NCBI GenBank assembly: GCA_001687465.1
Contig: LVLI01000118.1
Coordinates: forward strand, 62,001 to 126,000
Source: Halocafeteria seosinensis
Taxonomy: Eukaryota
Length of the DNA stretch: 64,000 bases
Reading direction: 5' to 3'
Shown here: positions 2,107 through 61,709 of the stretch, one piece after another
How positions within the stretch are numbered: the first letter of the stretch is position 1
How the letters are laid out: the number at the start of each line of letters is the position of its first letter
Position numbers and translations under genes: made by a program
Notes under the pieces: generated by a model
Database searches by the model: none
Seen by the model: the letters and a program-made list of their open reading frames with translations, nothing else
What the model was told of the DNA's origin: nothing

Positions 2107-5100
2107 ATGGCTGAAGATGAAGGCCATGTCATTTGCCCCTCCATTGACGCCGTCTACCTCAGTCAATTACGGCGCATCATTCATACAGCTACATATCACG
2201 TGTCTGATATAAGCCCAGGATCTGCTCAGAGATTGCTCGATAAAGTAAGTCTCTACCAGTTCTTGTATCTGCTGGCTGGTCTTTGGTTTACGCTCTGTAT
2301 GTGTGTACCAGCTCGACCAAGGGGGAGATGACCAAGTCTCACAGAGAATTGGCGTCGTGAAGCGCTGTCTGGATTTGGTACTATGTTTGGAGGGCAAACC
2401 AGGGTCGTCAAATATTGTCCCTGGTGGAACAAGAATCAGGAAACCGAATCGAAGAGACATGGAATCGTCGCAGAGAATGGAAGCGCGATACTCACGAATG
2501 GTTCAGCAGCAGCAACAGGAAGCGAAGCACGACAAGACTCCCATACTGGATTGGTTTGATTATACTCTCGGTCTTTTGACGGTATCCTTTTATGACAGGG
2601 ACCAAATTTTCCTTCAGAATTCATCAGTCATTTGCGCTAATGTAAGTCATCCTTCCAACTTTACAAAGTGGGTGAGATCCGTTTTGAGTCGAAATCGGAA
2701 AGGATACCCTCTGTGGTGTGGTGATGTATCGCTGGATGGCCCAATATTAACAGTTATCAGAGATTCTATCACACGACAAGGAGCACCCGAATCTGCCAGA
2801 CTTGACGACGAGAACAAAGCAAGTAGTCGATCCATACAGCTTGCAAAGTTGGGGGAAGTTATATCCTCGAAGTTTCGGAGACGACTCTCCGGGCACATTG
2901 ATCTTTTAACTTTAATGTCATTTGTTGAAGCGTATCCTCAGTTTCAAGTTATCTCAGCAAGTACTAAGTCAGAAGTATCCGTAACGAAAGTGCTACAAGG
3001 TTACTGTGAATGTGGTGCTCCCCACAAACCTGCCGTGACATCAAGATACCAGCGTCGTCATCTTTCTCAGGTTTGCTCCCGAACCCTATCCAAACTCAAT
3101 GTCAGATTTCGACGATGGATTCGGAAAACCCAACTATACAAGTCTCAATTATCGTTTGTTGCTGCGGATATGCCGAACGAAGGATTCGTTTCCTCAGCGT
3201 GGAGTGGCTATGCTGTCGATAGTGAAGATCACACTGCCTGTTTCAGCAACGACTATTCCCGTGCGACGGAAGACACGAATGAGCTTAGTCGTATAAGAAG
3301 TCGATATCGCCGTCCTTTTGCAAACAATTTCTCGGAACTTCTTTTACCTCAGCATATTTCCGAATATGTTGCTTCCGTGAGTAGTACCGCACAATCAGAG
3401 ACATGGAAAGTCATGAGGTTACAGCACTATTTTGCATCGCTGGCCTTCTACTGTTCACAATATGTAGGACGTTCAATAAGTGTGACTTTGTCTGAAGGCA
3501 AATACAATGTCGCCTCTGTTTTGGTGATGAATTCATTTTTGGCGGAAGCATACGATAAGAGTTCCGGCATAGAAATTCCTCTTCAGACATTTCCTTTTGC
3601 TACCTTGAACCGGATGGTGGACTTCATCTTTCAGGAAAAGTGGCTGACAACAGCTGGGAACCACTCATCCGATCATTTGTTGAAGTTGTGCCAATACAGG
3701 AAAGAGGACAACAGCAAGCTGATGTGTTGTTGCGTTAGCAGAGTAGGTGACAGTCCGACGTTGACGCAGGATGTGGCATCCGAGTCTCTTGCGCAGAGCA
3801 TGTCTACAATAAAAGGGCTACAAACGTTTCCATTGGAAAAGAATAAAGATGACATTGATTGGAGAGTCTACCTTCTCTTGGTTTATTGCGCTGTTACAAA
3901 ACTCGCATCGGAAAATTCAAAGGATGGTATCGGTGTAAAGCTTAGGCTACGGCAACTTAGGGGCTACCTCAATGATAGAAAAATCAAGTGTCCCGGAAGC
4001 TTACCGGGTGTTCGAGAAGACCTTGTGAAATCACTCACATTTACATTTATTATGGATTCGTTACCGTTCGTAGAGCTACATCAGGAACAAAAGCCATATA
4101 CAGTTGAGTTAAAGCAGCAACCGCTTCGCTTGGGTCGTGATCTGAATATTATGCTTGAAGCATCGAGCGATGAAACTCAATTGCGCCACGCAGTATATTC
4201 CGAACTACCGAACGATGATAAGCAAGTAATTGAAGAATGGTTTCAGACACTTTGCCGGCAACTGCTGCTACTCTCCACTCCTCTTTTCCAGGATAAACAT
4301 AACATCGAAAATGTTAAAAAAGTTGCTTTAGAGCGGGTAAGAAACATTGATGCTAGAGGAGGCGAACCACTCTTCCTTGACGATATCGGCGCTTCAAGTG
4401 TGGTCTTGGTAACTTTAGTACAATCGCTCGAGAATTCCGAAGCGCGCACGTGGTTAAAGTTGAGCAGTGTAGAGGAGACATTACAAGGATCCTGTCGTAT
4501 AACATTTCCACGGGACAGGAAATTGGCAGATTTTATACACAATTATTGCCACCGTCGGCTTGAAATCTGTGAAGAAAAGAACGAAGCTTTCGTTCGATCT
4601 CGCCCGCTTCACTTTTCTTCGGACTCTGCCACATTTCTACCAGGCGAAATCTCTGTGAAGCCTCCAATGGGAGAGCAAGACGTTCTTGATACATTTTGCG
4701 GCTTTTTAAGGAAGCTCCGCTTGGATGGAAGCCATGGCGTCTTCATTGAATCGTTATTATCACTTGCACTTGGAGGAGAACTCGACATGAATGCTTGGGC
4801 TAATGTATATGAGTGGGTGACACAACAGCCATGGTGCCATTTGTCGTTTCCCACGAAATCCTTCTGCTCAGCATCAGTGGTATTGTTTTCTGAACATGCG
4901 CTGAGTTCTGTACCGCAGTCGTTTCGTGAGGTTGGTAGAGGAAGTGGCGGTGAACCGAATGCAACTTACGAAGGCGGCCATGCGACGGAACAGACTGTTC
5001 TCTCTTCCACTGGTTTACCTTCGAGATATTATATTTATGGGGAAGGAGTCGGTATTGAAGAAGATCTCCATCACGAATTCAAGGGAGGTTTTACAGGTGG

Positions 5101-6208
5101 TGTTCACAAGGCTATACTAAACATTGCACCTAGATACGTAGTGGCGTACCTGAATGCCTCCGGAGGAACGCTGTACTTTGGAATCACTAATGAAGGCACT
5201 GTTCACGGGGTAAAACTCTGTCGTGCAGATAAGGACGCAATAAATTTGGCGAAGGACTCGATAGCGCAGGTATGTATTGTATTCGCTGATTCGGTGGGAG
5301 TTTTATGACTGATCTACATGAACTTGGTTCTGTGTTTGCGCAGAGAATAGGGCCTCAGGGAGTACTTTACCTAATAGACCATCCTGTTTTCATGCCCGTC
5401 TTTCGCAGGCTGTCCCACGCGAGTCAAGACGGCAGTTACTTTGAGGGACTACCAAACACTTATGTGATCGAACTGAATGTTAGCGCCAGTCCGAACCCTA
5501 GTGTACTTCACTATGAAATACGATCCAACGTCCCTAAGCGTTCGGGGAAGGACATCAAAGATTCAGCATATGTTTACTGGGTACGACAGGCGGCTAGCGT
5601 TCGCGCCATGAGCGACCCGCAAGAGATCGCGGAGTGGGCATTTGGTAGAGGAAGAACCTACGGTGGTGCTACAGATAGACATAGTCTGCATATCTCCCGA
5701 TTGAACGAAGCGCCGACCAGTCTTCCCGGTAATAGCACTTTACAAGAAACGTCCACCACGACGAATGCTGAGACGAAGTCTTCTTTGCCTTTATCCCCGG
5801 ATGAGAGTAATCCGCAATATCGAGAAGTTGACATTGCGCTTGCCCCGGAACACGGGGTTGCTTGGCAAGTGCCGTCCGATAAAAGGCTCAAAGACAGCTT
5901 TGGTAGCAATACAGTGCTGACTCTACGATTATCTCAAACTCCATTGAAGAATGTAGGTGCATTATTCCGCAAACATTATCTGAATCAACTTTATTCACTC
6001 CTGGTTGTGTCCACAGGGAGTTGGACTGGTCGTAGAATCGTTAGGTGGAATTCTATGTAAGACCCAGATTATTTGCTCGGGTGCACTACTGTTGGAAGTA
6101 AATGGCGAAAGCGTGGAGAAACTAAGGTTGAATAAAATCCGGAAAATTCTGGCTCCCGGGAAGATAAGAAGACTTAGATTTTTATCACCCTTGCCTCGAG
6201 AATCGTAG
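2107..6208 (+). CDS. ~1298-aa protein with winged-helix/LOTUS-like repeats, a Schlafen/AlbA_2 domain and a C-terminal PDZ-like region; exons 2107-2244, 2312-5269, 5344-5952, 6017-6208
   Basis: Three phase-0 GT-AG introns join four ORF-track fragments in frame. AlbA_2 motifs: EEDLHHEFK, YVVAYLNASGGTLYFGITNEGTVHGV, YVIELNV, YWVRQAAS. C-terminal LLLEVNGESV..L..IRKIL resembles PDZ. Confidence 0.8.
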
Positions 6209-10697: not shown

Positions 10698-11302
10698 AAG
10701 TGTTTTCAAATCTGTATTTCCAGCGCTCCAGTGCTCCTCTGCAGTGTAACCCGTTGCTTTCTACCAACAGCGGTAGTAGTGCCAACCAAGCACCGTGGAT
10801 TAAGAGGCCTTTTCCAATAAATTAACTACAATATACTTTGTTTCTATACACAGAAAGAGAATTTCATTACATGCGTCTAGCAGTGGAACGTAGCAATTAC
10901 TTCGTATTGCAGTACGGCAGATCAAGTAACCAACCAGTCCTACCACGCAGTTCCCATCCATACACAACTTAAAACTACCGAGCAAAGAAAAGCATGAAGA
11001 AAAAATCACTTCCATTCATTCATTCATATTCTGTCATAGCCTACTCATAGGGCTGATTTTGTTGAAGTTGGGCAATTTGGGGTTCATTGTCCGGCCCGGC
11101 CGGCACCGTCCGGGAGAAAGGCCCGGACCGGCCCTGAGACGTTCTTAAAGGTCCCTTATTGTGTAGGTATTGTTCTCTACACGTTTCTGGGTCATTTACG
11201 GTGCTCGTTCGTAGAAAGACACGTTCGGTCATCTGTACGTTACTGCGTAGAGGCTGTCCTATAGAGGAAACTCTGGTTCTGAAGAGTGGAAAACGCTAGA
11301 GA

Positions 11303-14300
11303 ATGGAGAAAGAGGGGGAATATAGCGCCCAAGATACTGAGTTTCTACGGGCTATATCAGCTCTTGCTGATATCCATTTGAGTATTCAACCTGCTCAAAA
11401 GAAAAAGCTTTTCGGTCTTTATAAGCAGGCCATGGAGGGGGATGTCGGAGAGTCTCCACCGGCTAATAATGTGATCGAAAGACGTGAATATGAGGCCCGC
11501 GTTGGCTTCCGCGGCATGAGAAAAGAAGAAGCGAAGCAGCAGTATATTGATACTGTCGACGGATTAGTGAAAGAGTTACACGGTGGAGACAGTCGTGGGA
11601 TCCAGGAGTATTCTACGACGATCGATGGGGAAGAGAAAGCAGGTGATGAAGCCGAGGAAGAAGGAGAAGATGCCTCCGACGGCAATGGTGCCAGCATACC
11701 ACCAGGGGAACATGTCATGCGGCGAATATCGGATGCGGTCTTTCACGAACGTCCAGAGGAGCATGAACGATCCGACAGGCCTCTCTCTAAGGAGGGTATT
11801 CTGTACAAACAGAGAGACGTCCGAAGTGTGTGGGCAGAAAGGCTTTTTGTACTGAAAGGGAAGAGCCTGTCCTACTATCGAAGCACCAAACAGAAAGAGC
11901 CAACGAAAAAATGGATTCTTGGCTCTACCTGCAAAGTGCAAGAGCTGCCACGAGAGTTCTCCAAGTCTATGATAAAAAAGAAGTACGGCAAGTTTTTCCC
12001 CTTTGCCGTCTCCCAGCACGACATGGTTCCTCCAATGCGATTAGCAGCAGCCTCCAAAGATGAACGGTATTCTTGGATGAAAGTTATCCGTCGCGCAGCG
12101 CAATCGACAGCGGATGGACCCGCCACTCCTACCAAAAGGAACGAAGGCACAAGCGTCCCATTTTCTGACCGTCCTAACGGTACTGCGAACAAGGATAACA
12201 AGTATGCATACACCCATGAAGAGACGAACGTTGTGTCAAACGCTGAGCAAACAAGTGCAGAAATCGTTGATTCACCAATGTCAGGTGGAAGCGAAGCGCA
12301 AAATGAGGTATATCATTGCACCCTGGAAGAAATTGCGGCCCCTTATCCTCCAGAACCGTACACTAAGGACGCACAAAAAATGATGAATGATTTACAGAAA
12401 CTTGAAAAATCAAAAACAGAATGGAAGTACAGCAAAGAAAGGAAAGGAGTATATTGTTACCATGGAACCGGAGATCTCGCCGGTGCGAAGGGGACTGGAT
12501 TCGTCAATTTTTCACGCCGTGCAATACGAGACATGCTTGTCGATCTTGAAAAAAAGCCTCTTACAGATAGTAAATTTGACGATGGTCGTGTGATTGAGCG
12601 TTTGGACTCCAGATCCACCGTCACATACATGCGATACAAGGCTGTGATGCCAACTTCGGCGCGGGACTTCTGTAACTTCACCCACTGGCGTGTTGCTACC
12701 CCTTCGGAGGAAGAAGGAGGTACCTTGTATATTGCTGCCAAGAGTGTCAAACACCCCGAATGCCCCGAGGATAAGGATTGTGTACGAGCAGACTTGAAGA
12801 TCGGTGGGTGGGTAATCCGCCCTATCAAGGGGAAGAAAATTGCAGAGGAACGAGCCGCCGCGAGATCCAGAGGAGAGGATCCCGGACCATGGCCAACCGA
12901 TGTGGATATTGATTCTGAGGGATGCGAATGTACTTACTTGGTTTTAATCGATCTCTGTGGCGACATACCGGGTTTCGTCGTTGGGATAGTTACTCAGCAA
13001 CAAGCGCTTCTCGTGGCTGCTTTGCGTGAAGCCTTAGAAAAAGAATGGAAAGGAAAAGACTCGGAAATGCGGCGAATTCCAACCATTCATAACTTTGACA
13101 AAGATGATAATCCTCCGGTTGTTGCCCCTGCAAAGTCGGGCACCAAGAACCCAGGTCCCAAGAAGTCGGAAACGGAACCGGCGGGAACACTCAAGGATGG
13201 AGGAGGAGTGCATTCACAACAAAGTAGCAATGCTCCGGAAGCTGTAGGAACCGAAACCTCAGACTTAAACATACCCGGTTTGACTCAACCTCTTCCGATC
13301 GAACGGCCGCCTCATCAAGTCTCTGTATTTAGTGCCTTGGTTCTCTTGGTTCCGGCAGTGCTGGTCTACGCCTACGGTGAAATGCCATATCACTACCGTG
13401 AACAGTACCTCACTCCATTGAATTTCTTAATTTTCTTAGGCGTGATCTCGATATTCTGCTTGTTATTGTTTCGACGTCTCTGGGTCGGACCCTCCAATAT
13501 GTCTATTCGGAGAAAATTGACCATCGCCACATGGACCGCCCCGCAAGAAGGTAGGCTCACCCGTTCGTGACTAGTTCCTCTCACGATGGTGGTGACGCTT
13601 TGATTCTTTACTGGTTTGCAGGGAACATCTATGGCGCATTATCAGTGGATGTAGGGAAGGCGCGGCAGTACATCGAGGACGTTCGCACAAGGACAGGAAC
13701 GAAAGTAACAATGACCCATTTAGTGGTCAAGGCACTGGGTACAGCGCTCAGAGCATGTCCAGCGATAAACGGGTACGATACTGTCTTGCGAAAGGATGCC
13801 ATTGGCAATGTTTCATTACCTTGCTTTTCTCTTACTGCGATTACAGAAGAATTGTTGATAACGAGTACATTGAAGCTGGGCGAGTTGATGTGTCATGCCT
13901 GATCAATATCCAAGCTGAGGGAGATTCGTCGCAGCAGTTTCAAAGCCAACGCAAAGCAGACTTGGGCAATGTAAAAGTAACTGATGTGGATCAGAAGACA
14001 GTCGTAGATATTGCTCAGGAGCTTTCAGAAAAGGCTAAGAAACTACGAGCGGGCAAGGACAGCGATTTCGAGAAGACGAAGACTGCGTTGAAGGTGCGTC
14101 GGTACTACTTTTATTTCAATTCGGCGGGACTAGATTGATAGGTCCTGTAATCCTCTTGTGAACAGATGCTTCCGGTTGGTGTACTGAGATACGTAGTATC
14201 TACTGCCGGCTACCTCGGGTCTCAGCTAGGGTGCACAATACCGTTCCTAGGCGTTCGACCGTATCCTTTTGGAACTGCATGCGTCAGCTCGATTGGATCC

Positions 14301-37067: not shown

Positions 37068-37490
37068 AAGATTGGAATGTATATGGTAGTTTCTCCAGAG
37101 AAGGATGAGGACGTCGGATTGCGACGACAAACCTAGAAGAGCCCACTTGTTTTCACGGCTATTTCACAGGACTTCAATCTCGATCAGAAATAGCAGAGAC
37201 TGTTGCAATCCAACTTCTGCTAGTCCAATCATCTATGATCTGGAGTATAACCTACCGTACATCGACCTGACGCGGGATTGGAATTCGTGGACGTCTGTGA
37301 AGATTGGCGAATCTCACAAATGTTTGTTTTTCGGCAACACCTGTCGTCTGCGAATGTTCAACTATGGCAAAACTCCAAAGAAGTCAAGTGTAATTGAAAC
37401 CCTATGAAAGCGTAAAGTTTCACTGATAATTTTTGTTGTCAATTCGCAAGTTTTGGATGCTGAGTATAGCAGTCGTGGACTGCTTCCAAG

Positions 37491-39813
37491 ATGAAAAGTA
37501 CGTGAATTCTTCGATAGGGAACGCCTACGCCCTTGGAGGCAACAAAAAAGGGGTGGGTCGCTGCGTAGAGAGAAAACACTGGGGGGAGGGATGTATGGGA
37601 AATACCTGTGTGCTTCAACTTCAATGTTGCAACACGTGCACTTTTATTGTGATAGCACGCTGATTGTACACTCAACCCTGATAATAAGTCCCTCATGTTT
37701 CAACCCTTGGTGCAGACCGAAAGCGTTCGGCTAACCAGACTGAGCCGGATGGCACGGAGGAGGCGAGTGCTCCTACAGGCCATTCGAAGACTGCTGGAAA
37801 ACGCGTCGAGAGAAGGCTACAGAGGAACAGAAAATCTGCGGCACTTCACAGGGAAAGACAAAAAGCGCTTGTTGATGGTCTAGTTGGTCGTGTGACCTCT
37901 TTAACTGTGGAGCGTGATGCTCTCAGGTATGTTTCGAGCTTAACCGAGTTATAGAGCGACACCCCGTTTTCACAGTGTATTCAATTCTTCTGTACAGACA
38001 AGAGCTCGAACGAGTGAGAAAGGAATACAATATTAAAGTACACTTTCCCCCGGAAGCGGAGCAGCCTCCGCTAGTACCTCAAAGCGACCTAGAGAAAGGG
38101 GTTTCGCCGGATGGAGATGGAAGTGCAAGCGCCTTGACCGAGAAAATAGCCGCCTTGAAGCGTGATCTGGCTCGTAAACAACCCCATTTTCAAGTAGACG
38201 GGGTGAAAATTGATCCGTCCAAACACTCCGAAGATGACGAGGGCAAAACCTGTGGCTCAGAAAACGAAGAACCAACGGAGCTTCCCGACTTCAGTTCTTG
38301 CCACAAGAAGCAGCATCATTCCGGAAGTAGCTACTCGGGAAACAACACCAGTGACGCCGAAAGCATGCACTCATCGGACTCAGAGATTACGGGGGAATAT
38401 GCGACTGCCCGTGCCCCTGAGCGCAGTATCCACAATCACGTAGATTTGTCGTCTCACTTGAAGAACGACCACTTTTCTGGAACTGAACAAGATGAAACTC
38501 GTTCGTGGCGCGATTTTGATAAAATGGACGAATCAGGAGACACTCTGGAGGAAATCCCTGAAGGGGAATACCCTGATCACCTGTCCGATGTTGATTTCTA
38601 TTCAAACTCCTTGTTCAACGGAGAGGAGTTGCCGTTCTTGGGCAACGAATTGGATGATAATTGGAACGGCAACCAGTCTTCGTTCTTTGGAGAGTTTGGA
38701 TCTCTGAGTCCACTGGACGTTGTACAAGAAGAGCAAAGCCGCGTAAAACGAGCGAGGATGGATAATACAGAGGATCTTAGGTCACATAGTGGCATGAGTG
38801 GCAGAGCTAGTGGCGTTGGTTTTGCTGGCATCTTCCCTGCTGTGATATTTGGACTTGCATGTCTGGTGTGTCTTGCTTCTTTGCCTACACTTAAGGATCA
38901 TGGTCAAAGCCAGGGAATTCAGAGCTACTCCGTGGGTGAAAGATCCCTCATGAGCAGTGTCACTAATACCACTACAGTCTCTCAGCCACTGTTGGATTTG
39001 CTCCAGATTACGGAAGCAAATAGTAGTAACGGGTTGGAACAACTTAATGCCGCAATTTCCAGACACGGACGCAATTACACTGCATCGGGAAAGAATGGTT
39101 TACGCGGAACGAAAAAGTACAACAATGCGCCTGCTGTGTTCCAGGATGACACGAATTGGAAGAACAAAGCGTTCTTGTCGGGAAGCGTCCATGGACAAGA
39201 CTCTGCAAGAGCTTTGTCGCAGTACCTTGTAGATTTTCTGAACTCCGATGATCCTCAGTTCCCACAGCAAGGAGAGCTTCTCGAGCACTTTGTACCAGAA
39301 CAGCACATAACAGATGATAATGATGTCAGCTTTTCACAGCTCCACACCGATGCAGCACTCTGGTCATACAGCACGGAGCTACTCTCGATACTTGGTGATT
39401 CTGACATCGTAACAAGACGCCAGCGTGAAGCATTAAAGAAGTCTCTTGTGCCATTCCAGTCGAGTGAAGAATTGGTAGCGCAATCGTCGGAGGCTGAAAA
39501 GTGTCCTCGGGACACCAGCAGCAACAAGGGGGTGGTTGGCATACCCTTCAGAAGCGAGCTCGTCCGTCGTATTGGACGATTCGCCGCATCTTCACGCGAG
39601 AGTGAATCAGAAGGATCCTCCTTGGAGGGACCCTTGTTGAGGTTCATGGTTCCTGATAATTCTCAGAATGAAAGCCAAGCGGTGCTTTTCGCCGATCCGG
39701 AATTTAGCGAACATGAGGAACTGAAGGAGGGGAGCGGTTTTCTCGTCCCCTTCGAAGGAAATTGGTACGACTTAACGTGCCGAATTGAGAAAGTATCTCA
39801 CCGAATGTTGTAG
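37491..39813 (+). CDS. Membrane-tethered bZIP transcription factor (ATF6/bZIP28/CREB3-like layout), ~677 aa; exons 37491-37497, 37716-37926, 37998-39813
   Basis: An exon absent from the ORF track encodes RRLQRNRKSAALHRERQK plus zipper LVGRVTSLTVERDALRQEL. One TM FAGIFPAVIFGLACLVCLASL, then RSLM and a luminal-type domain with N-x-S/T sequons. The first micro-exon is less certain. Confidence 0.85.
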
Positions 39814-39817
39814 CTGC

Positions 39818-41158
39818 TCACTCGCGCGCTTCAATCTGCCTATCGATTTCCGGTATCAATTGTTCTAATGTCAGCCGCTCATGTGGTTTAACCCGTAGCA
39901 TGTCGGTAACAAGCCGTTGAAACATCTTACTGTATCTTGTGTCAACCCACGATGGAAATCTCCACTTGCCAATAACCCGCAGATGTGTGGGAGTTACTAT
40001 ACGAGGAGAGTCAGAGTTATTCCATTCTACCTCGAACGGGGAATACCCAAATGCAAGTGCATAAAGCGTGCAACCTAATGACCACAGGTCGCTCTTAAAC
40101 GTCACCGTAGCACCTATTTCGGGTTGAAACAGTTCTGGAGCCCTATATGGCATCGAGCTGCGAAAAATGTATTAAAATACAAAAAAAAATATACTATGTT
40201 TGCGTAGTTATTCGTACCAGTTGTTTTCAGCGTGATCTTGTACCGCAAGTACATCCGAGCGATTTCTTATAGGCTGGTTTCCAGAAGTTGTAGACCCAAA
40301 GTCCTGGAAAAAATAGAGGGAAACACATTTCGATAGATCACCCTAGTGATGATGTAACGACATTGCTCACCAAAAGAATGGGATTCTTGTGATCATCTAA
40401 CAGTATGTTTCCTGGTTTTATGTCTCGATGGGCCCACGGTGGTTCATGAGTATGGAATTGATATATTCCATGAGCAACTCCCTTGATGATCCTCAGGCAA
40501 TCTTGTTCGCTAAAGTATATCTGCTTGTCCCGGCAACTGCGGATTGTGTACCAACATCAATGCAGAGTCTGTTTCTCTAACTGTCTTCAGTTATGGACAC
40601 TAACCTATCTAGATAGTTTTGGCACGTCCCTTTAGGATAGAATGGAAAAATAAATGCCGCCTGCTGCGATTCATCAGTAGAAAGTTTGATAAAGTCTTTG
40701 CGAAGCAGAGGAATCAGATTCGGATGATCGAATTCTGAATAGACACCCATTTCAAAACGACATTGTTCGATTTGTTCAGAGGTTTGACATCTAGCGAGCT
40801 TCATAGCATAGCGGAGCGTGGTTTCCGTATCCTCCACTAAGTAGACGAACGAGAATCCGCCTTCGGCAAGCTTGTGTAAGAGTCGGTATTGGCGTCCATC
40901 GACGACCACACACGGGCTTGCTAACTCCTGGAACCATGTAATTCCGGTGCACTCGTACGCAGCGCTGGCCGCATTCCTAGCGCAACTTTTGAGAGCAACT
41001 ACCGCAGTTTCAATCAAAGAAAACAATGGTGAATCCAAATTACCAGTTTCATCGTCCTCTTCTGACCCTTGGGACTTGGAAAGCAAATTCTGCTCCACAT
41101 CCGCCTCCGAATGCTCTTCCTCTCCCACCGAAGCTGCTTCGTCTTTCCTAGATTTCAT
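39818..41158 (-). CDS. STK16: NAK-family Ser/Thr kinase, STK16-like; exons 41158-40605, 40536-40371, 40303-40218, 40157-39818
   Basis: LAEGGFSFVYLV, YAMK, AHRDIKPGNILL, DFGS, CSMPYRAPELF, DLWSLGCTLYALAFGYSPFE. Confidence 0.93.
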
Positions 41159-42081
41159 CGTCCCTCCACGTCGAGGCGGGATATGTCATGTGTGGAGTCA
41201 AAGCAATGGACAATTTACAAAGAATGTTGTGTATTGTATTATGACGGTGGCGTAGTCGCTTGAAGTTGAAGATCCACTGATTCAATCATTCAATGACACT
41301 CAGACTGTGGTTGACAGCACATATGATAATCAAGCTTGGGTTGTGTGTATTCAACTTCAACTATAGTAAGTACCCGTTAGCCGAGGCTACGCCTCCCTTC
41401 ATACGCCGTATTGGGCATTACCAAATGCAACCACTTGCGCAGCGTTCTGCAGTTGCTCGCCGCACCGAACAGCTTACTAAGCTGAGCTTAGGCGCAATCG
41501 AAGATCCCTGACAAACAAGACCGGATCCGTTACCCTTAGATTAGACGGCCTATCATACAGCTCCATGATAATACCATTTCATAAATTACCCTATGGTACT
41601 TGTAAACCAGTACTAAAAAATACACAGGAGTTGGTTTACTCAAAGCTCATGATACTATGCCAAATGAGCTACAAACACAGTTTCGGGCTCCGGCATTGGG
41701 AGATTCGGAATTCAATGAATCAATTCTCGTGCTCGCAGACGAGCCGTAGGCAAGCAGTCCAATCAAAAAATTGACACAGATTAGCAGGGGGCAGGGGTGG
41801 GCTTCTTGAGCAAAATAGCGCAAGGCCTTCGTACAGAAAACAGTGTATAGGAGTTCACACGCGTCCGATAATACAAATAGGGTCATTACCGCATGATTGT
41901 AGTAGAGACGTTTCCGTGCAATGGGGAGTTGTCTGTATTCGCCTGATTCAATGGTTCATATAGATCAAAGTGTCATTGATAGTACTCCACCTTTTCTTGA
42001 GTTGATAGCCATGGATAGGTTCGTCCAAGATTCGCTGCGGGTTACTCTTCCGGTAAGTAATACCAACAGATGGGCAACCAG

Positions 42082-43969
42082 CTAGTCATAGCGGCCCAGC
42101 AGGCCATCGATGAATGCTCCATTCAGACGATGTTCCCTCTGAAAGTTTGCGTATTCGTGTACGCGCAGCTCAACGTCGCTTACAGACGATCTGATGAAGA
42201 CGTCATAGAGTAAGTAGCCACAGCCGGTGCGTCGAATATCCATGAGAGATATGCGAAAATCACCAGTACAACTCACCCACTTCGGTTTGACCATATCCAG
42301 AGTGACTAGCATTGTCTTGTCGATAATTTCTTGGGAGATCATAATGTTGGATTGCATTAGTTTCTGTCTGTAAACCCATTCCAAGTCGGACCTGCTCAGG
42401 TAACCATCGTCGTCGAAGTCCAAAATCCGGAACCAATACCCGATACTGTGGACACTCATTGCATCTTCATGGGCAAAGAAGAACAAAAGAAATTTTTCAA
42501 AGCCAGCCCCATTCCCCGTTAGCGGAAGAACAGTATCTAATATCCTCGGATGAAGATCAAGATTCTCCACTAGTGTCAGGCTATCCTTGGTGATGATTGA
42601 TTGCTGGCTCCACTCCCCCGCCTTCTCTGAAACAAGAGCATTGCAAAAAGTCCCATAAATTGTCTCGAATCTGACGACGTTAAATGCTGGTAATTGGGAC
42701 AGCCGATTCACGGCGCACTGGTAAAAGATATCCACTACATTGCTTTGAGACAGCTTGTGTAAGGTCGTGAATTTGGTCGACACCCCTTCAAGAGAAGACA
42801 GTATACTCACGAGTACATACTTGATATAGGCTTTTCGCTTCGTAGGCTGTTTTCTAAGGGATGCTAAGTCAGGATGTCTGTCAATCAGGGCCTCGATGAA
42901 TGGCTTTAGATGCCTCCGATCAATTCTTTCCCATTTCCATTCCTCGGCAATTTTGGAACATTGGTATATTTCGTGTCCTTGACTTGTTTCTAGTGACAAG
43001 ATTTCGTCCTTTTGTGGCTCATGAATCAATTTAAGGAACTTTTCTCTTGCATTTGCACTGCAAAAATCGTCTGTGCAAAATCTCAAGAAATCTCTGAGTC
43101 CTATTCGATCATTTTCTGAAGAATTTGGGGGCTCACTATTCTCATCTTCATCCTCTGGGATCCATGGAGCTTCTCTAAATTCTAGCACCTTCTCTTGGCA
43201 CAATTGTTGAATAACGGACTTGTATTGCTTGATTCGTTTGAAAAGCACAACTCCAAAATATGCAGGGAGACGGCAGTATTGCTTGACTAGATCGCGGAAG
43301 CCCTGACACGTGGAGGAAAGCCGCCAGGAGTTCTCCCGAAAGACGGTCAACACAAACTTTGGTATATCAGTAAGATATCTCGGAACGCAAGTTTGTTCTG
43401 ATGGAAGTCCCGCGGCTCTCGGGTAAATTCTAGTTAGTTCGCGCCTGGCAACACAAACGGCCTCAATACAGCTCGTAAGTGTTTCATGCAACATTTTGGT
43501 GGTAGCACTTCTTCGTTTGACTAAGCAATGCAAGTCGGCATTCAAAAATGGGCGATTTCTGGTCGAAGGTATGATGCCAATTCTCATGTGTGTTCGCGCT
43601 TCCGCTCGATCCTGTAAAATACAAAACAGCGGCATATGTTGGAAAACGCACATGGAAAATCATGGCTAACGCCTTCTTTACCTTGCTGATAGAGACCATC
43701 GATTCCAGTACAGCCGATGACTGACAATCCACGACGTCGTACACGAATAGGACTGGCCACAGGTCAACCGGTGATCCGAGGTGTTCCGTTTCTTCTTTGA
43801 GTTCTTCTGAATTCTTGGCAACTTGGAGTATCAGAGGTAATGTTTTTGCAGCCTCCTGGTAAAGCGGTATGAGCTCCGTAGAAGCGAACAGGATCACCTG
43901 AAGTACACTCTCTCCCGAAGATGTCTTCGTCTGCATACGTGAGGAAACAGGCCGGGAATCGGACGGCAT
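42082..43969 (-). CDS. PP2A B''-like (PR72/PPP2R3-family) EF-hand protein, paralog A; exons 43969-43682, 43611-42082
   Basis: CRLPAYF, LKPFIEALIDRHPDL, FEKFLLFFFAHED, SIGYWFRILDFDDDGYLS, DMVKP...ISLMDIRR match B'' motifs in divergent form. Confidence 0.82.
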
Positions 43970-44812
43970 ATCTGCCTATTTCTCTTTAAAGACTAAAGTG
44001 AGGAGCTTCTACGTCAAGGGTTACGAGGATGTAATTCCGAGCTTCAATTAGCCTCATGCCGCGTAATTTGGGCAGCATGCTTCCTATTCACTTGACTTGG
44101 GTCAGTTCCACGGGGTTTCCAGGATACCGGTACAATGACCGCAGAGGCGACTCTCTTTTTCAATAGACCAGAACGAGGCAAATAAGGCACCATGTAAGCT
44201 AAACTAATGAGTTGTTCTCAATAAAGTAGGCTGGTTTCCCAGGTCCCGAGAGCTTCTTTGGGACAAAGACCATAAAGTCAGCCTCCGAGGAGTGGAACAG
44301 GTGTTCTCCACAAGCCCCCTGCAGACCGGATACTCCCGATAGCAGTACAAAGAAGACTTGCCTGTACTCGTGCAATTTGTATGCGCTTGACAATCCCAAA
44401 ATATTCAGCCCCAACAAGCGAGAAAGTGGTTTGGGAGTGTGACGTTATTTTGTTTCCGGCGCGGGGCCGCGGACTTTGCTACTGCCATCTCAGGTATTGG
44501 CTACTACCACACTTAACAGTGGCACTTGCTGCCGTGAATAGCCAGCCCATTTATCAGCAATTGGGGTAGCCACCCGTGTGAAAATGAAAACGACAGCGGC
44601 TACTATTCACTACGGCAGAGATTGTGTTAGCTGCCAGCTGCAGTGCAGTTTCCTGCGGACTTGTCAAAAACGTGCCAGCCGACGGACCTTCAACGTTCGC
44701 TGCGCTGCATGGTACGGATGCCGCAAATACTGTATGTAGTGCAGCCAGCAGGTGGTGGTTGTTACGTCTTTGTAATTGTGTTTATTTCGAAAATCGAATG
44801 GAGTCGCATCCC

Positions 44813-46967
44813 CTATTCGGCTGTCGCTGCTGGAGTCACTGGACAAGCAAGGAATTGACTAGGTGGTCGCGTTGGAATAATTACTTGCCTTTCAAGCGGC
44901 TGCAATGACGAAGAAACAAACAAATCAAATACCACAAACCCCGCTCCACTCTTCCTGATCTCAAAAGGGGATATGCGGAACTCTCGAGAAGATTGGTTGG
45001 TCACAGGATGAATAGCATCCATAAGCTTGCACATCGCGTTATGCCCCAACGTCGACGCTTGTTCAGAGGAAACACCGGCTGCAATGAGCTTCTCTCGATA
45101 AACCACCTCGAGATCCTGACGACTAAGATACCCATCATCATCTATATCCAAGGCTCGGCACCAATATTCCACACTAAGGTCGCGCATGCGGTCTTCTTTC
45201 GCTAGTAAGAACCACATGTAGTCTTCAAAATCTAATCTTCCCTGTTCACTAGTATTCAGAAGCTTAACATTGGAACGAAAAATTCTTTCCAGCACAGTGT
45301 GAGTTATGGGAAGACTCATTGCGGACTGTAGTCCTTCACGGTGTATCGTTGCATTGACTTCCTGCGTCTGTTGGCTACAGCCGGATGCTTGGCTATTAGA
45401 CAAGGCTCTCTGAAACACCTCGTGTGCCTCTTCGAAATATCTTAGGCTAAAGGGTAATACCTGGGACAACTTGCATGTAGCACACTTATAAAAGAGGTTA
45501 GCAACTCCTGACTCCCTTAGGTGCCGAGTGGGAACGCATCCCTGGCAAAAGCCGTTTAAAGAAGCAAACACACTGGTCAACACACATGTAACATATCTGC
45601 TCTTGCGCTCGGCATCCTCCCTAAGTTGTCGAAGATCGGGATGCCTTTCCACCAGTGCTTCTACCAAAGGTTGAAGATCTTCCATATAAACTCGATTCCT
45701 ACTCAAAGATGGCAGTTTTCCTCGAGTTGACGAGGAATCGTCGGTTTCCATTTCCAAAACCGTTTCGCAACTCGGTGGTATGACAGCTCTAAGAAACCTT
45801 GACATGCGCCCGCTGTACCTGACCGCTGGGGTCCAAAACCTTAGAAAGTCCCTCAAACTGATAGCAGAAGGATCCTCGGTGCTTTGCTTCCTGGTATTTG
45901 GAAATCCGGGAACACTGTCTAGACTGGTGGGAGCAAGAGACCCTCGCTCTATTAGTTGCTGTGTTAATGAGCGATACTGTTGGATGCGTCGAAATACCAA
46001 GCTGTCGAAATAGGCAGGGAACTTGCATGCTTGCTTCAAAAGTCGCCGAAAACGTGGATCTTCTGCATGTAGCTTTTCGCTTCCGTCTCCTCCGAATGAT
46101 ACGACAACCTCCTCGGGTATCTCCGCTAGGTATGATGGAGTCACCTCGCTTACTGGTGTACTCGTGGGATCTTCGACATCCTGGGCATTCATATCTACTT
46201 TCTCAATTGAGGGCGACTGAGACATTGAGATCGTGCGAGAGGGCCGAGGAAGCTCTCCACTTCCTGATGGGCTGGTGGCATCCACTTCGCCGACGTTCGG
46301 GGTCTCAATAGGTTGCAATGAGCCCATACCTTGAGACATGTTTTCCCCATGTCTACTATCGGAATGATCGCCACCTGGGTTATTAATCTGGGATTTTAGG
46401 CAATGAAGCACTACACCTCTGATATCATGCTCCGTTCGCCGAACGAGAACTCGCTCGTTAGGATGCCAGTCGTTTCTACCTGTGGACGAAATGACCCACC
46501 GTGACGCTGGAGAAACGTTCTCCTGTCCAACATGTTCAAAAACCATAAAAAATTGAATGCGTCAGAACAGCTGTATTCACCATACTCAATCTTACCTTGA
46601 CCATCTCTATCATCTGTGGAATGGCATATCCGCAACTTGGGTCGTCAATTTCGAACAAAAACACGCAGTTGGGTGGAACAGACTCAAGTAAGCATCGCAG
46701 TTCGTTGACCGATGATGCCCCTACAAGGCATACGGAGAGGTCACGGCAAACATGTGAATAATATTGTAAGAGGTCGCGGGAGGAAATAATGACCGCCGTA
46801 GGGGTATTCTCCTCGTTTATAGTTCTCGGACTTGCTTCTCGATGCGGAAACGATGGTAAACACGTGGCACTGCGGCTGCCGCTGAGGCGCTTCTCCTGTT
46901 TCGAAGCTGTATCTGACGAACCACCAAAGTTCAGCAAACGCTTAGCAGTATCTCTTAGTCTCCCCAT
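44813..46967 (-). CDS. PP2A B''-like (PR72/PPP2R3-family) EF-hand protein, paralog B; exons 46967-46596, 46522-44813
   Basis: CKFPAYF, DLQPLVEALVERHPDL, LDFEDYMWFLLAKED, SVEYWCRALDIDDDGYLS, ISPFEIRKSG. Intron position matches paralog A. Confidence 0.85.
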
Positions 46968-58946: not shown

Positions 58947-61709
58947 ATGAGTAGTCCGCCGAAGAAGAGATCGAGAAGGCCGAAGCGGTACCGATCATAT
59001 TCCCGGGGGCAGGAAAAGCTACTACGCGGGGGTCTAGATGTTTGTCCAGACCAAAGGTATCGTGGATTCTCTAAGTCCTCTCGTTCGACACATCTTTTTT
59101 TCTCCGATGACAAAGATGATACTACTGAGATTGGTGAGACTGTAACGCCCTCGGAAACAATATTCACCACGGGTGGGGAAAACAGTGAGGTGAGCGCGGG
59201 GGAATCACAAAGGCTTTCAGATAGGAAAAAGTTTCCCAGCGCTACAGAAGTTGATATAGGAAATGGACGCGAGGGTAACGCCAATGCAAACCAAGAACAG
59301 ACTTTGGTTCGTAGGGGGAGAAGTAATGCCGAAGCGGGCTGTAAAAAGAAGCAGAAGAAAGGCCCAATTGACATTGAAAAAGCAAGTCCCTTCTCAGCTT
59401 CGGTGACTAAAACTCGGAACCCTGCAAACGCGAACAAGGGACATAGCTCAAGCAATCCAAAAACTGTTGAACATTCTGAAGGAGCAAACTCAGATAAACT
59501 CGGCTTAATCCAACGACGGCAGGAAAATGGTTCGCCAGTTACTGCCGCTCCTCCCCCAACGAGCACGAGCTCCGCTACTCTACACTCGAGAGGGAAGGGA
59601 TTGTTGGTAACCCAAGACGAAAAGTATGAGGATACAAGTGAGTATCGGATAGAGGTAGATGTATGACAGTTTAGACTTTGTCCCTTCACCGATGCGTTTG
59701 TGCCCTGTGGTATGTCTTGTACAGGTCGCAAAGCAGCGTTGTTGAACTGTTTGGAAGAAACCCAGGATGTCACTCGGTACCCGAAATTACAGCTCACTTC
59801 CGAAGACAGGGGGGCAATAGAGGAGATGATCAACAACAGTGACGATGACTTAACGCATACGCGTTTTAGTGATTTCCAGTCTTTCAAATTCAGCATCCAA
59901 AGTGCAGTGGAGAGTCGGGAGAATCAGATGGTAGCGACTCTTGTTGCAATCGAGTTGTGGGAAAGAATCCTGAAAAAGATACCATCAACGCCACCAGGGA
60001 TACCTTTGGAGGCAGGTACGTTGAACTCTAAGAAGGGGAAACCAGAGTTCTTGTGAGGAGTTCTATCTTAGGTTGGTCTTGCAGGCGACAAGGGTTTCGT
60101 GAAGTTCGTCCAGAGTGTGAGACAGATGCCATACACGAAGCACGTGAAGTACCTGTCGCAATGCCAGATATGGGGAGCAGGCAATCTTCCCGATGGAAGG
60201 TTGTATGTTCGTCCGGTATATCGCAAGCTGTACAAAGTACTACGTGATGAGCCAGCTTCTACGTTGTTTACCATCGAAGGAACTCCTGGAATAGGGAAGA
60301 CTACGATGATTCCCTACATGATTTGGCGTTTATTAAGGGAGACCCCGCCACCAGAAAACATTTTCTTTTGTCCCCAGCAAGAAAACAAGCATTTCCTTCG
60401 CATTGCTAGAACTGGAGCAATAACCCGCGTCACCAAAGTAGAGCTCAAGAATCAACTGCATCCTGGCGATTATGTTCTCATCGATGGAGAAGTCGGAAGC
60501 TCTATGGGGAGCGTTTCTGGATATGCCATACGCCTGGAAAGGGTCAAAATGGTTGCCTTCATCTCCCCTCGGAAACGTAACAGGCAGTGTTTTGGAAACG
60601 AACGGCTGAAACGGAAACTAATGCCACCATGGGGGATTCAGGAACTTCTTGATTGCCGCGAACATGTGTATAAGACCATACCAAGAGAAGATGTCCTGAA
60701 TCGCTTCAAACAAGCTGGTGGTGTCGCGCGGTATGTGTTTCGTGACGGAGACTGGACACTCATCAAGTCTGAGCTATCGAAACTGGATTTGTCGACGATC
60801 CTCCACTACACGGGCGAGATACGAGAGTCGACATCAACAGACGATGGGAGGTTTCGTGTTCTGCATGCATGGCCAGATGCTGCTCATTCCTGTCCGTTTC
60901 AGTTTGAAGCGGGTATTATCCGATTTGCTTCAACTGCTGTCCAGAATTATGTGTTGACAAAGTGGGACCAACAGCAATGGCTGGAGATCCTTGAAGAGTT
61001 ATGGCAGAATACAGGAATCGAAATACAAGGATACAGGAATCTGTTCGAAACAGCATGTCACAAACTTTTGCCTCAGACGGAACCACACTCGAAACCGTTA
61101 AGATTAAAATACCAGGCTCTGGAGAAGCACCCAGGGGGATGGACACGAAGTGGGAAGAAAGCCAAGTTGCGTTTACTTAAGGCTGAGATGGTCGATTTTG
61201 GCGGCTGTACTGCCATCGATAGGCTTGTGGAGAAGTCTCGAAACATGGCCGACTTTGAAGGTGTATATGCGGACCCCCTTGAGGGGCGTTACCCTTCCGT
61301 TGACGCAGTTATCATTCCCAAAGATTTAACGCAAGCGCCGATTCTCTTGCAGTATACGGTAGGTGAAGATCGCTTATTGGACATGTATGGGGTGTTAGGG
61401 GTCTGGGAGAGTCTTAGTGGTCACTTCTCGAAACTCCCGGTATTCTACTTCGTGGTGCCTGATCATCGCCTTGATACCTTTCAGCCAAAACTTCCTAAGT
61501 ATTCGCATGGAATCAAGCAAGCAGCGGTGAAAGATCTGTTCAAGAAAATGCAATTTTACATTGTATCCCTCTGTCATGGTAAGGTTGCACTTATCCACGG
61601 TTGCCCCAGTAGCATGTTACACCTGTTCTGTCCTGCAGACAAGCTGAAGAAGCGACTCATAGATGGTACGGCTGGAAACGGAGGAACACCGTCCAGTACT
61701 AGAAGATGA
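58947..61709 (+). CDS. Crinkler/RHS-type (CR) protein: P-loop NTPase + PD-(D/E)XK-like nuclease, ~848 aa; exons 58947-59637, 59725-60015, 60085-61578, 61639-61709
   Basis: LYVRPVY, Walker A IEGTPGIGKT, MPPWGIQEL, GGVARYVF, FAS, LFETACH, YPSVDAV, LLQYTV, FYFVVP. Introns are phase-consistent. Confidence 0.85.

Follow-up and report, generated by a model that had tools for sequence, protein, structure and literature searches.

A spliced bZIP gene and its neighbours

The plus strand of the window (the whole stretch of 64,000 nucleotides that was analysed) carries a gene for a protein of 677 residues, encoded by one open frame across three exons from an ATG at 37491 to a stop at 39813. Coding exon 1 (37491..37497) contributes ATG AAA A, and is placed by the splice joints and by the start of the protein P0004 (MKNRKR). 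It is followed by intron 1 (37498..37715; 218 nt, GTACGT..CAG), exon 2 (37716..37926), which carries the basic region and the larger part of the zipper, intron 2 (37927..37997; 71 nt, GTATGT..CAG) and exon 3 (37998..39813), which encodes the end of the zipper, a spacer, the membrane segment, the luminal domain and the stop.

The gene is real and is spliced. Both introns are removed in contigs from three of four public runs (X2, X3 and X4), as joints 37497/37716 and 37926/37998, and contigs from X1 have neither joint and are unspliced. The four runs are of unrecorded kind and represent at most three samples (X2 and X3 being the same) of a single study; X1 is possibly the source of the window. 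Since all nine introns seen between 36000 and 41500 are skipped in X2–X4, these runs behave as RNA. P0004, a transcript-derived EukProt protein of 677 residues recorded as 'complete', is identical to the gene model at 675 of 677 residues. The preliminary description had proposed that the exon at 37716–37926, absent from its track of open reading frames, is spliced to the frame downstream, and had named the splice 37926/37998 in transcripts as a check; the joints in X2–X4 and the match to P0004 bear out the proposal, and the named splice is present in the contigs of all three runs.

The spliced leader extends 5' at least to position 37382. It contains two upstream open reading frames, one of 3 codons (37404–37415) and one of 19 codons (37457–37734), the latter running across the main ATG in another frame. 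Their layout is ATF4-like; the leader has 2 upstream ATGs where 2.3 are expected by chance, and both contexts are weak.

The bZIP gene stands head-to-head with a spliced archease gene on the minus strand (37064 to ~36015; 253 residues, Pfam Archease, four introns seen as joints), with ~110 nt between the spliced contigs of the two. Archease is a cofactor of the RtcB ligase, which joins XBP1 mRNA. In a compact genome, such a head-to-head arrangement may be due to chance. On the other side, a spliced Ser/Thr kinase gene (39818–41185, minus strand) is convergent with the bZIP gene; its frame ends a few bases from the bZIP stop, and contigs span both genes. Next to it, 41336–41500 is a high-copy repeat with many loose ends, where the depth of X1 contigs reaches ~17000.

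Elsewhere in the window, the ORF at 11300–13570 joins ACBP, PH and START domains, two adjoining ORFs at 42082–46561 (minus strand) with EF-hand_13 matches are apparently tandem paralogues, and the only match of the 1019-residue ORF at 2249–5308 is to a Schlafen/AlbA_2 domain, at its C-terminus. The 545-residue ORF at 60072–61709 has a P-loop (GTPGIGKT), and at E ≤ 1e-4 Pfam gives no match for it; on visual inspection, we take it to resemble a Crinkler/RHS-type P-loop protein.

The bZIP domain and the probable cytosolic part

The protein is a member of the bZIP superfamily. Its bZIP domain (residues 32–84; 37802..38031, spanning intron 2) scores 34.2 bits with Pfam bZIP_1 (PF00170) against a cut-off of 27.6, so that the bZIP assigned to exon 2 in the preliminary description is confirmed. 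The N-x7-R pattern runs from N40 to R48, and the heptad positions of the zipper are L58, L65, L72 and V79.

Comparison by eye of the basic region, NRKSAALHR, with NRESAxLSR of ATF6 shows that S, A and L are retained, while E is replaced by K and S by H. The Arabidopsis genes AT2G40950, AT3G56660 and AT3G10800, which we take to be bZIP17, bZIP49 and bZIP28, also enter this comparison. In the bZIP table of supplement 1 of Jindrich & Degnan 2016 (PMC4736632), NRxSAxLxR is found in the ATF6 rows and in the three LSR rows of these Arabidopsis genes, and the S-A-x-L signature is found as well in rows of Mucor, Acanthamoeba, Dictyostelium, Ectocarpus and diatoms, in the last two as SAxLSR. The basic region NRxSAxL-H-R of our protein thus resembles the ATF6/bZIP17-28 signature. 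As the signature is spread over so many lineages, what it marks is a wide clade rather than attachment to a membrane.

The histidine had been singled out in the preliminary description as an unusual residue of the basic region. This does not hold, since three oomycete bZIPs have SAxLHRER too: the string LHRER is found in three rows of the same table (PMC4736632), all of them oomycetes. The closest basic region seen is that of the oomycete proteins PITG_09280, Ha_808215 and Ps_140472 (RRLxRNRxSAxLHRERxKA), which were compared on their bZIP domains alone. As these three oomycete bZIPs have LHRER too, the histidine is a subfamily trait, and its restriction to oomycete rows of the table lends independent support to a stramenopile affiliation. 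The protein probably falls within the wide basic-region clade of ATF6, HAC1 and plant group B, as part of a stramenopile subfamily with SAxLHRER.

Beyond the zipper, conservation was assessed with two independent relatives, P0005 (73% identical) and P0006 (50%); P0007 differs from P0006 by one residue and was not counted separately. The gene calls of P0005 and P0006 start at the last exon, without the bZIP exon, so the comparison covers exon 3. Over the three sequences, 73% of positions are invariant just past the zipper. The figure is 60% for the membrane segment, ~58% for the luminal core and 59% for the C-terminal 22 residues; it drops to 21% in the juxtamembrane spacer and to 12% in the linker that surrounds RSLM.

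The segment that follows the zipper (residues 80–143; 38017..38208) shows the strongest conservation in the protein, with 47 of its 64 positions invariant, and it matches no known family in Pfam. It contains PLVP, which is reminiscent of the plant motif B1 at a level that is not significant. Farther along, residues 241–318 (38500..38733) form an acidic and aromatic stretch (27% D/E, 24% F/W/Y/L), a candidate activation region by composition. KRAR (38746..38757), which precedes the membrane segment on its presumed cytosolic side, is a putative nuclear or topology signal that is aligned as KRAR, KRAR and KRPR in the three sequences. The bZIP occupies the very N-terminal end, and 260 residues separate it from the membrane segment.

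The membrane segment and the predicted luminal domain

A single transmembrane segment is predicted at residues 345–369 (38812..38886). Kyte-Doolittle windows of 19 residues exceed 1.6 only when they start at residues 343–355, with a peak of 2.47 and a next best value of 0.69; the single segment proposed in the preliminary description is therefore the sole region above 1.6. Each of the three sequences has a single hydrophobic segment, and in none of them is there a signal-like stretch at the N-terminus. By this hydropathy prediction, one membrane segment lies C-terminal to the bZIP and is followed by a long tail, which is the layout of ATF6 and plant group B. The conserved elements of the segment are FP, G and ASLP, and none of the S2P helix-break motifs (NP, NxxP, PxxP, GxxN) was found within it in any of the three sequences. 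Charges within 15 residues of the segment are near neutral and so do not fix its orientation.

Exactly 18 residues past the membrane segment, all three sequences have RSLM (38941..38952), a candidate site-1-protease (S1P) site, which the preliminary description had placed ~20 residues on. Its four positions are all invariant, as an island in a linker where the surrounding 26 positions are 12% invariant. A motif of the form RxL or RxxL is found in the first 45 luminal residues of 38% of shuffled sequences, and RxL[LMTKFR] in 6.8%. The S1P consensus is given as RxLx or RxxL (PMC4606518, PMC13082318); RSLM falls within RxLx and outside the stricter Rx[LIT][KL]. According to a review, the motif is too short for target identification, and in Arabidopsis it is S2P, not S1P, that cuts bZIP28 (PMC9237531). 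S1P (SBT7) is reported in all the eukaryotes sampled by one survey (PMC6713707).

The luminal part is 308 residues long; luminal tails of '>300 aa' are given for bZIP17/28 (PMC9237531). It contains a conserved core (residues 400–562; 38977..39465) with ~58% of positions invariant, the invariant Cys575 (39502..39504), the strand GPLLRFMVP (39628..39654), the sequon NES (39667..39675; NDS or NDT in the relatives) and, near the end, WYDLTCRI (39763..39786) with Cys667, invariant in all three sequences. For RVLM, which the preliminary description had named as an example of an S1P motif and which would be the site of bZIP28, the text of PMC9237531 and PMC4606518 has no occurrence.

The luminal sequons NTT, NSS, NYT and NES, at 38965, 39019, 39073 and 39667, lie where the preliminary description had put them. 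Their number is not in excess (4 against 2.7 expected from shuffles, P = 0.29). Each of the three sequences has four luminal sequons, and three of the four occupy identical columns. The presence of RSLM and of the sequons would not count by itself; it is their conservation in the relatives that makes them count, which is modest evidence from three sequences. A cytosolic sequon at residue 189 is also common to all three sequences, and this weakens the sequon argument for a luminal location.

There are exactly two luminal cysteines per sequence, in identical columns in all three (Cys575 and Cys667). ATF6-alpha likewise has two conserved luminal cysteines, C467 and C618 (PMC10739154), which control its dimer state and transport (PMC10739154, PMC13266193). 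The likeness is one of number, positional homology being a separate matter. By analogy, it suggests that Cys575 and Cys667 may have a role resembling that of the ATF6-alpha cysteines.

The preliminary description had also compared the end of the lumen with that of ATF6. Seven published short motifs of ATF6 and plant proteins were scored on P0004, P0005 and P0006, with shuffles and 31–39 chunks of the window's other ORFs as controls; tests with such short motifs are of limited power. Scored against shuffles on the three sequences, the two ATF6-specific MEME motifs are at chance (MMQIDC-type, P = 0.44–0.99; RRxDT-type, P = 0.59–0.78), as is plant motif B6 (P = 0.29–0.67). The core of B7 (the last 18 of 32 positions) gives P = 0.11–0.55, with its best match elsewhere than WYDLTC. 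B1 (P = 0.05, 0.42 and 0.48) is not convincing, and B5 (P = 0.05, 0.61 and 0.31) has its best match away from RSLM. The Capsaspora ATF6 9-mer has its best match at the predicted place, GPLLRFMVP, with P = 0.005 in P0004, 0.005–0.009 in P0005 and 0.23–0.30 in P0006. The profile P is 0.003–0.004, and the score exceeds that of every one of the 33 control chunks; the 9-mer was picked after the likeness had been seen, and allowing for seven motifs P becomes ~0.02–0.04. Joint motif scores (P = 0.008–0.03) were rejected as independent support, as they are driven by the 9-mer. The likeness of the tail to ATF6 is thus weakly positive for the PLLRFMVP strand, which resembles the Capsaspora 9-mer in two of three sequences, and negative for the Cys-bearing strand, where the MMQIDC-type motif is at chance. 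That part of the earlier claim found no support.

The structural comparison of the tail that had been suggested as a check was uninformative: AlphaFold models from 3–4 sequences had mean pLDDT of 34.9 and 39.9, and Foldseek with the predicted model gave nothing at E ≤ 0.001. The second model has strands at LLRFMV and DLTCR, which were set aside because every residue there has pLDDT below 50. The luminal core (residues 400–562) has no match in Pfam, PDB or the Atlas. PDB sequence searches with the lumen gave no match, and an Atlas search with the lumen gave a best score of 0.83 and no lead. The top ESM Atlas clusters are bZIPs of 747, 328 and 597 residues at 0.91, a low recognition score that makes them a lead only. 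A Pfam PXB match was rejected, being below the cut-off (E ~0.005–0.008) and absent from P0005 and P0006. Word-based protein searches (3 of 5402, 3 of 1144 and 1 of 132 candidates) found nothing beyond the two close relatives; they are insensitive, with no other bZIP among the 132 candidates, and are no evidence of absence. Among metagenome contigs, 0 of 320 pattern matches were confirmed and there were 0 matches to the tail pattern.

Relation to known membrane bZIPs and proposed activation

ATF6 is ~670 residues long, with its bZIP adjacent to the membrane segment. Our protein is similar in size, and resembles holozoan ATF6 (alpha and beta) in its NRxSAxL-x-R bZIP, its one membrane segment, an RxLx soon after it, two luminal cysteines and, weakly, the likeness of GPLLRFMVP to the Capsaspora 9-mer. 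It differs from ATF6 in having His in place of Ser before the invariant Arg, in a bZIP (residues 32–84) that is 260 residues from the membrane, in a membrane segment without NxxP, and in that the two ATF6-specific MEME motifs do not rise above chance. With plant group B (bZIP17/28/49) and the algal proto-B proteins it shares an SAxLxR basic region, probably a type II layout, and a luminal tail of ~300 residues with a hydrophobic terminal strand and a near-terminal Cys; unlike group B, it has no convincing match to B1, B5, B6 or the B7 core, and the juxtamembrane motif KTKKVAS was not seen by eye. CREB3/OASIS proteins are type II membrane bZIPs released by S1P and S2P, with shorter luminal tails. 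The top PDB match, which is not significant (E = 0.078), is 6iak, presumably chicken CREB3. The basic region of OASIS, however, is NKxSAxxSR (PMC4736632).

The gene, its splicing, the bZIP, the hydrophobic segment and the conserved positions of RSLM, the two cysteines and the sequons are direct observations, and a mechanism is read from this anatomy. We give an even chance to the reading that the protein is a type II bZIP of the ER whose activation follows that of ATF6/bZIP28, with a cut in the lumen at RSLM and then an intramembrane cut, most probably upon ER stress. The N-terminus would face the cytosol and the C-terminus the ER lumen, where the luminal domain would hold the precursor in a chaperone- or redox-gated manner. 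Under stress, the precursor would move to the Golgi, where an S1P-type subtilase would cut after RSLM and an S2P-type cut would then follow within the membrane segment. The N-terminal ~350 residues, with the bZIP, the post-zipper segment, the acidic stretch and KRAR, would be released to the nucleus, and the acidic spacer could activate transcription, with ER-chaperone genes as candidate targets.

The same proteolytic release could answer another signal, the lumen sensing salt, lipid or secretory load (compare bZIP17 and the CREB3 family). bZIP17 is chiefly salt-induced (PMC4606518), no ATF6 or plant motif and no entry of Pfam or the PDB matches the luminal core (residues 400–562), and, as a weak point, no ERSE or UPRE was found upstream of the bZIP gene. 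Yet the two-Cys layout and the basic-region signature follow those of ATF6 and group B, which are ER-stress factors, and we regard another signal as unlikely. XBP1, HAC1 and bZIP60 have an N-terminal bZIP followed by an acidic region. The order is the same here, with the bZIP at the extreme N-terminus, and an archease gene stands head-to-head; both would suit a bZIP60/XBP1-type factor, whose anchor is removed in RNA by IRE1 or by alternative splicing and in which RSLM is incidental. We consider this very improbable, as RNA-level release would need neither the long conserved lumen nor the invariance of RSLM, a rough scan of the mRNA for 7-nt CNGNNG loops on stems of at least 4 pairs gave 0 against 0.65 expected, and exon 3 has no internal joint in the three contig sets, from which rare forms drop out.

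It is also conceivable, if doubtful, that a stramenopile bZIP gained an unrelated lumen by convergence and is released by another route, be it another subtilase, a rhomboid, or ERAD and the proteasome as for Nrf1, the ATF6-like tail being due to chance. Six of the seven motif tests are at or near chance, the spacer between bZIP and membrane is long, the S2P helix-break motif is absent, and word-based searches limit the homologues to two close relatives. The last point is tempered by the insensitivity of those searches, and the ATF6/group-B basic region, the 9-mer match, the position of RSLM and the two cysteines all agree with one another and argue against convergence. We return to activation in the manner of ATF6/bZIP28, and file the protein as one that likely works like these factors, without assigning it to either family. 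Judged from its sequence, it is probably a stramenopile form of the membrane bZIPs released by proteolysis; we do not claim it as an ATF6 orthologue.

It is possible, and we hold it as a tentative reading, that PLLRFMVP...WYDLTC is the same small beta-rich, Cys-bearing module that ends ATF6 and bZIP17/28, and that the protein is a stramenopile descendant of an ancestral ER sensor. The proteolysis-released UPR branch, including its sensor domain, would then date to LECA and would not be a plant-animal convergence. The preliminary description had held that, if the luminal similarity is homology, ATF6-type sensors are older than usually assumed. This was overstated, since published work already places the clade deep: OASIS-ATF6, HAC1, plant proto-B and heterokont bZIPs consistently form one cluster, without meaningful bootstrap support (PMC4736632), Ostreococcus OtbZIP3 is placed in proto-B, and a membrane segment is given for all members of groups B and K (Correa 2008, PMC2492810). 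With heterokonts and OtbZIP3 thus included, an ancient origin of this clade is not a new idea, and the surprise is moderate because the basic-region clade was already known to include heterokonts.

In reviews, plant bZIP17/28 are treated as functional analogues of ATF6, and the branch is described as unidentified in protists, e.g. Dictyostelium (PMC6025073). A search of open-access titles and abstracts brought up none on a stramenopile membrane-tethered bZIP or on luminal homology of ATF6 and bZIP28, though figures and supplements may hold such material. A protein from a third supergroup with a bZIP, an anchor, an S1P-type site and two luminal cysteines makes the question of homology versus convergence testable, and the oomycete bZIPs with SAxLHRER are candidates for an undescribed ER-stress branch.
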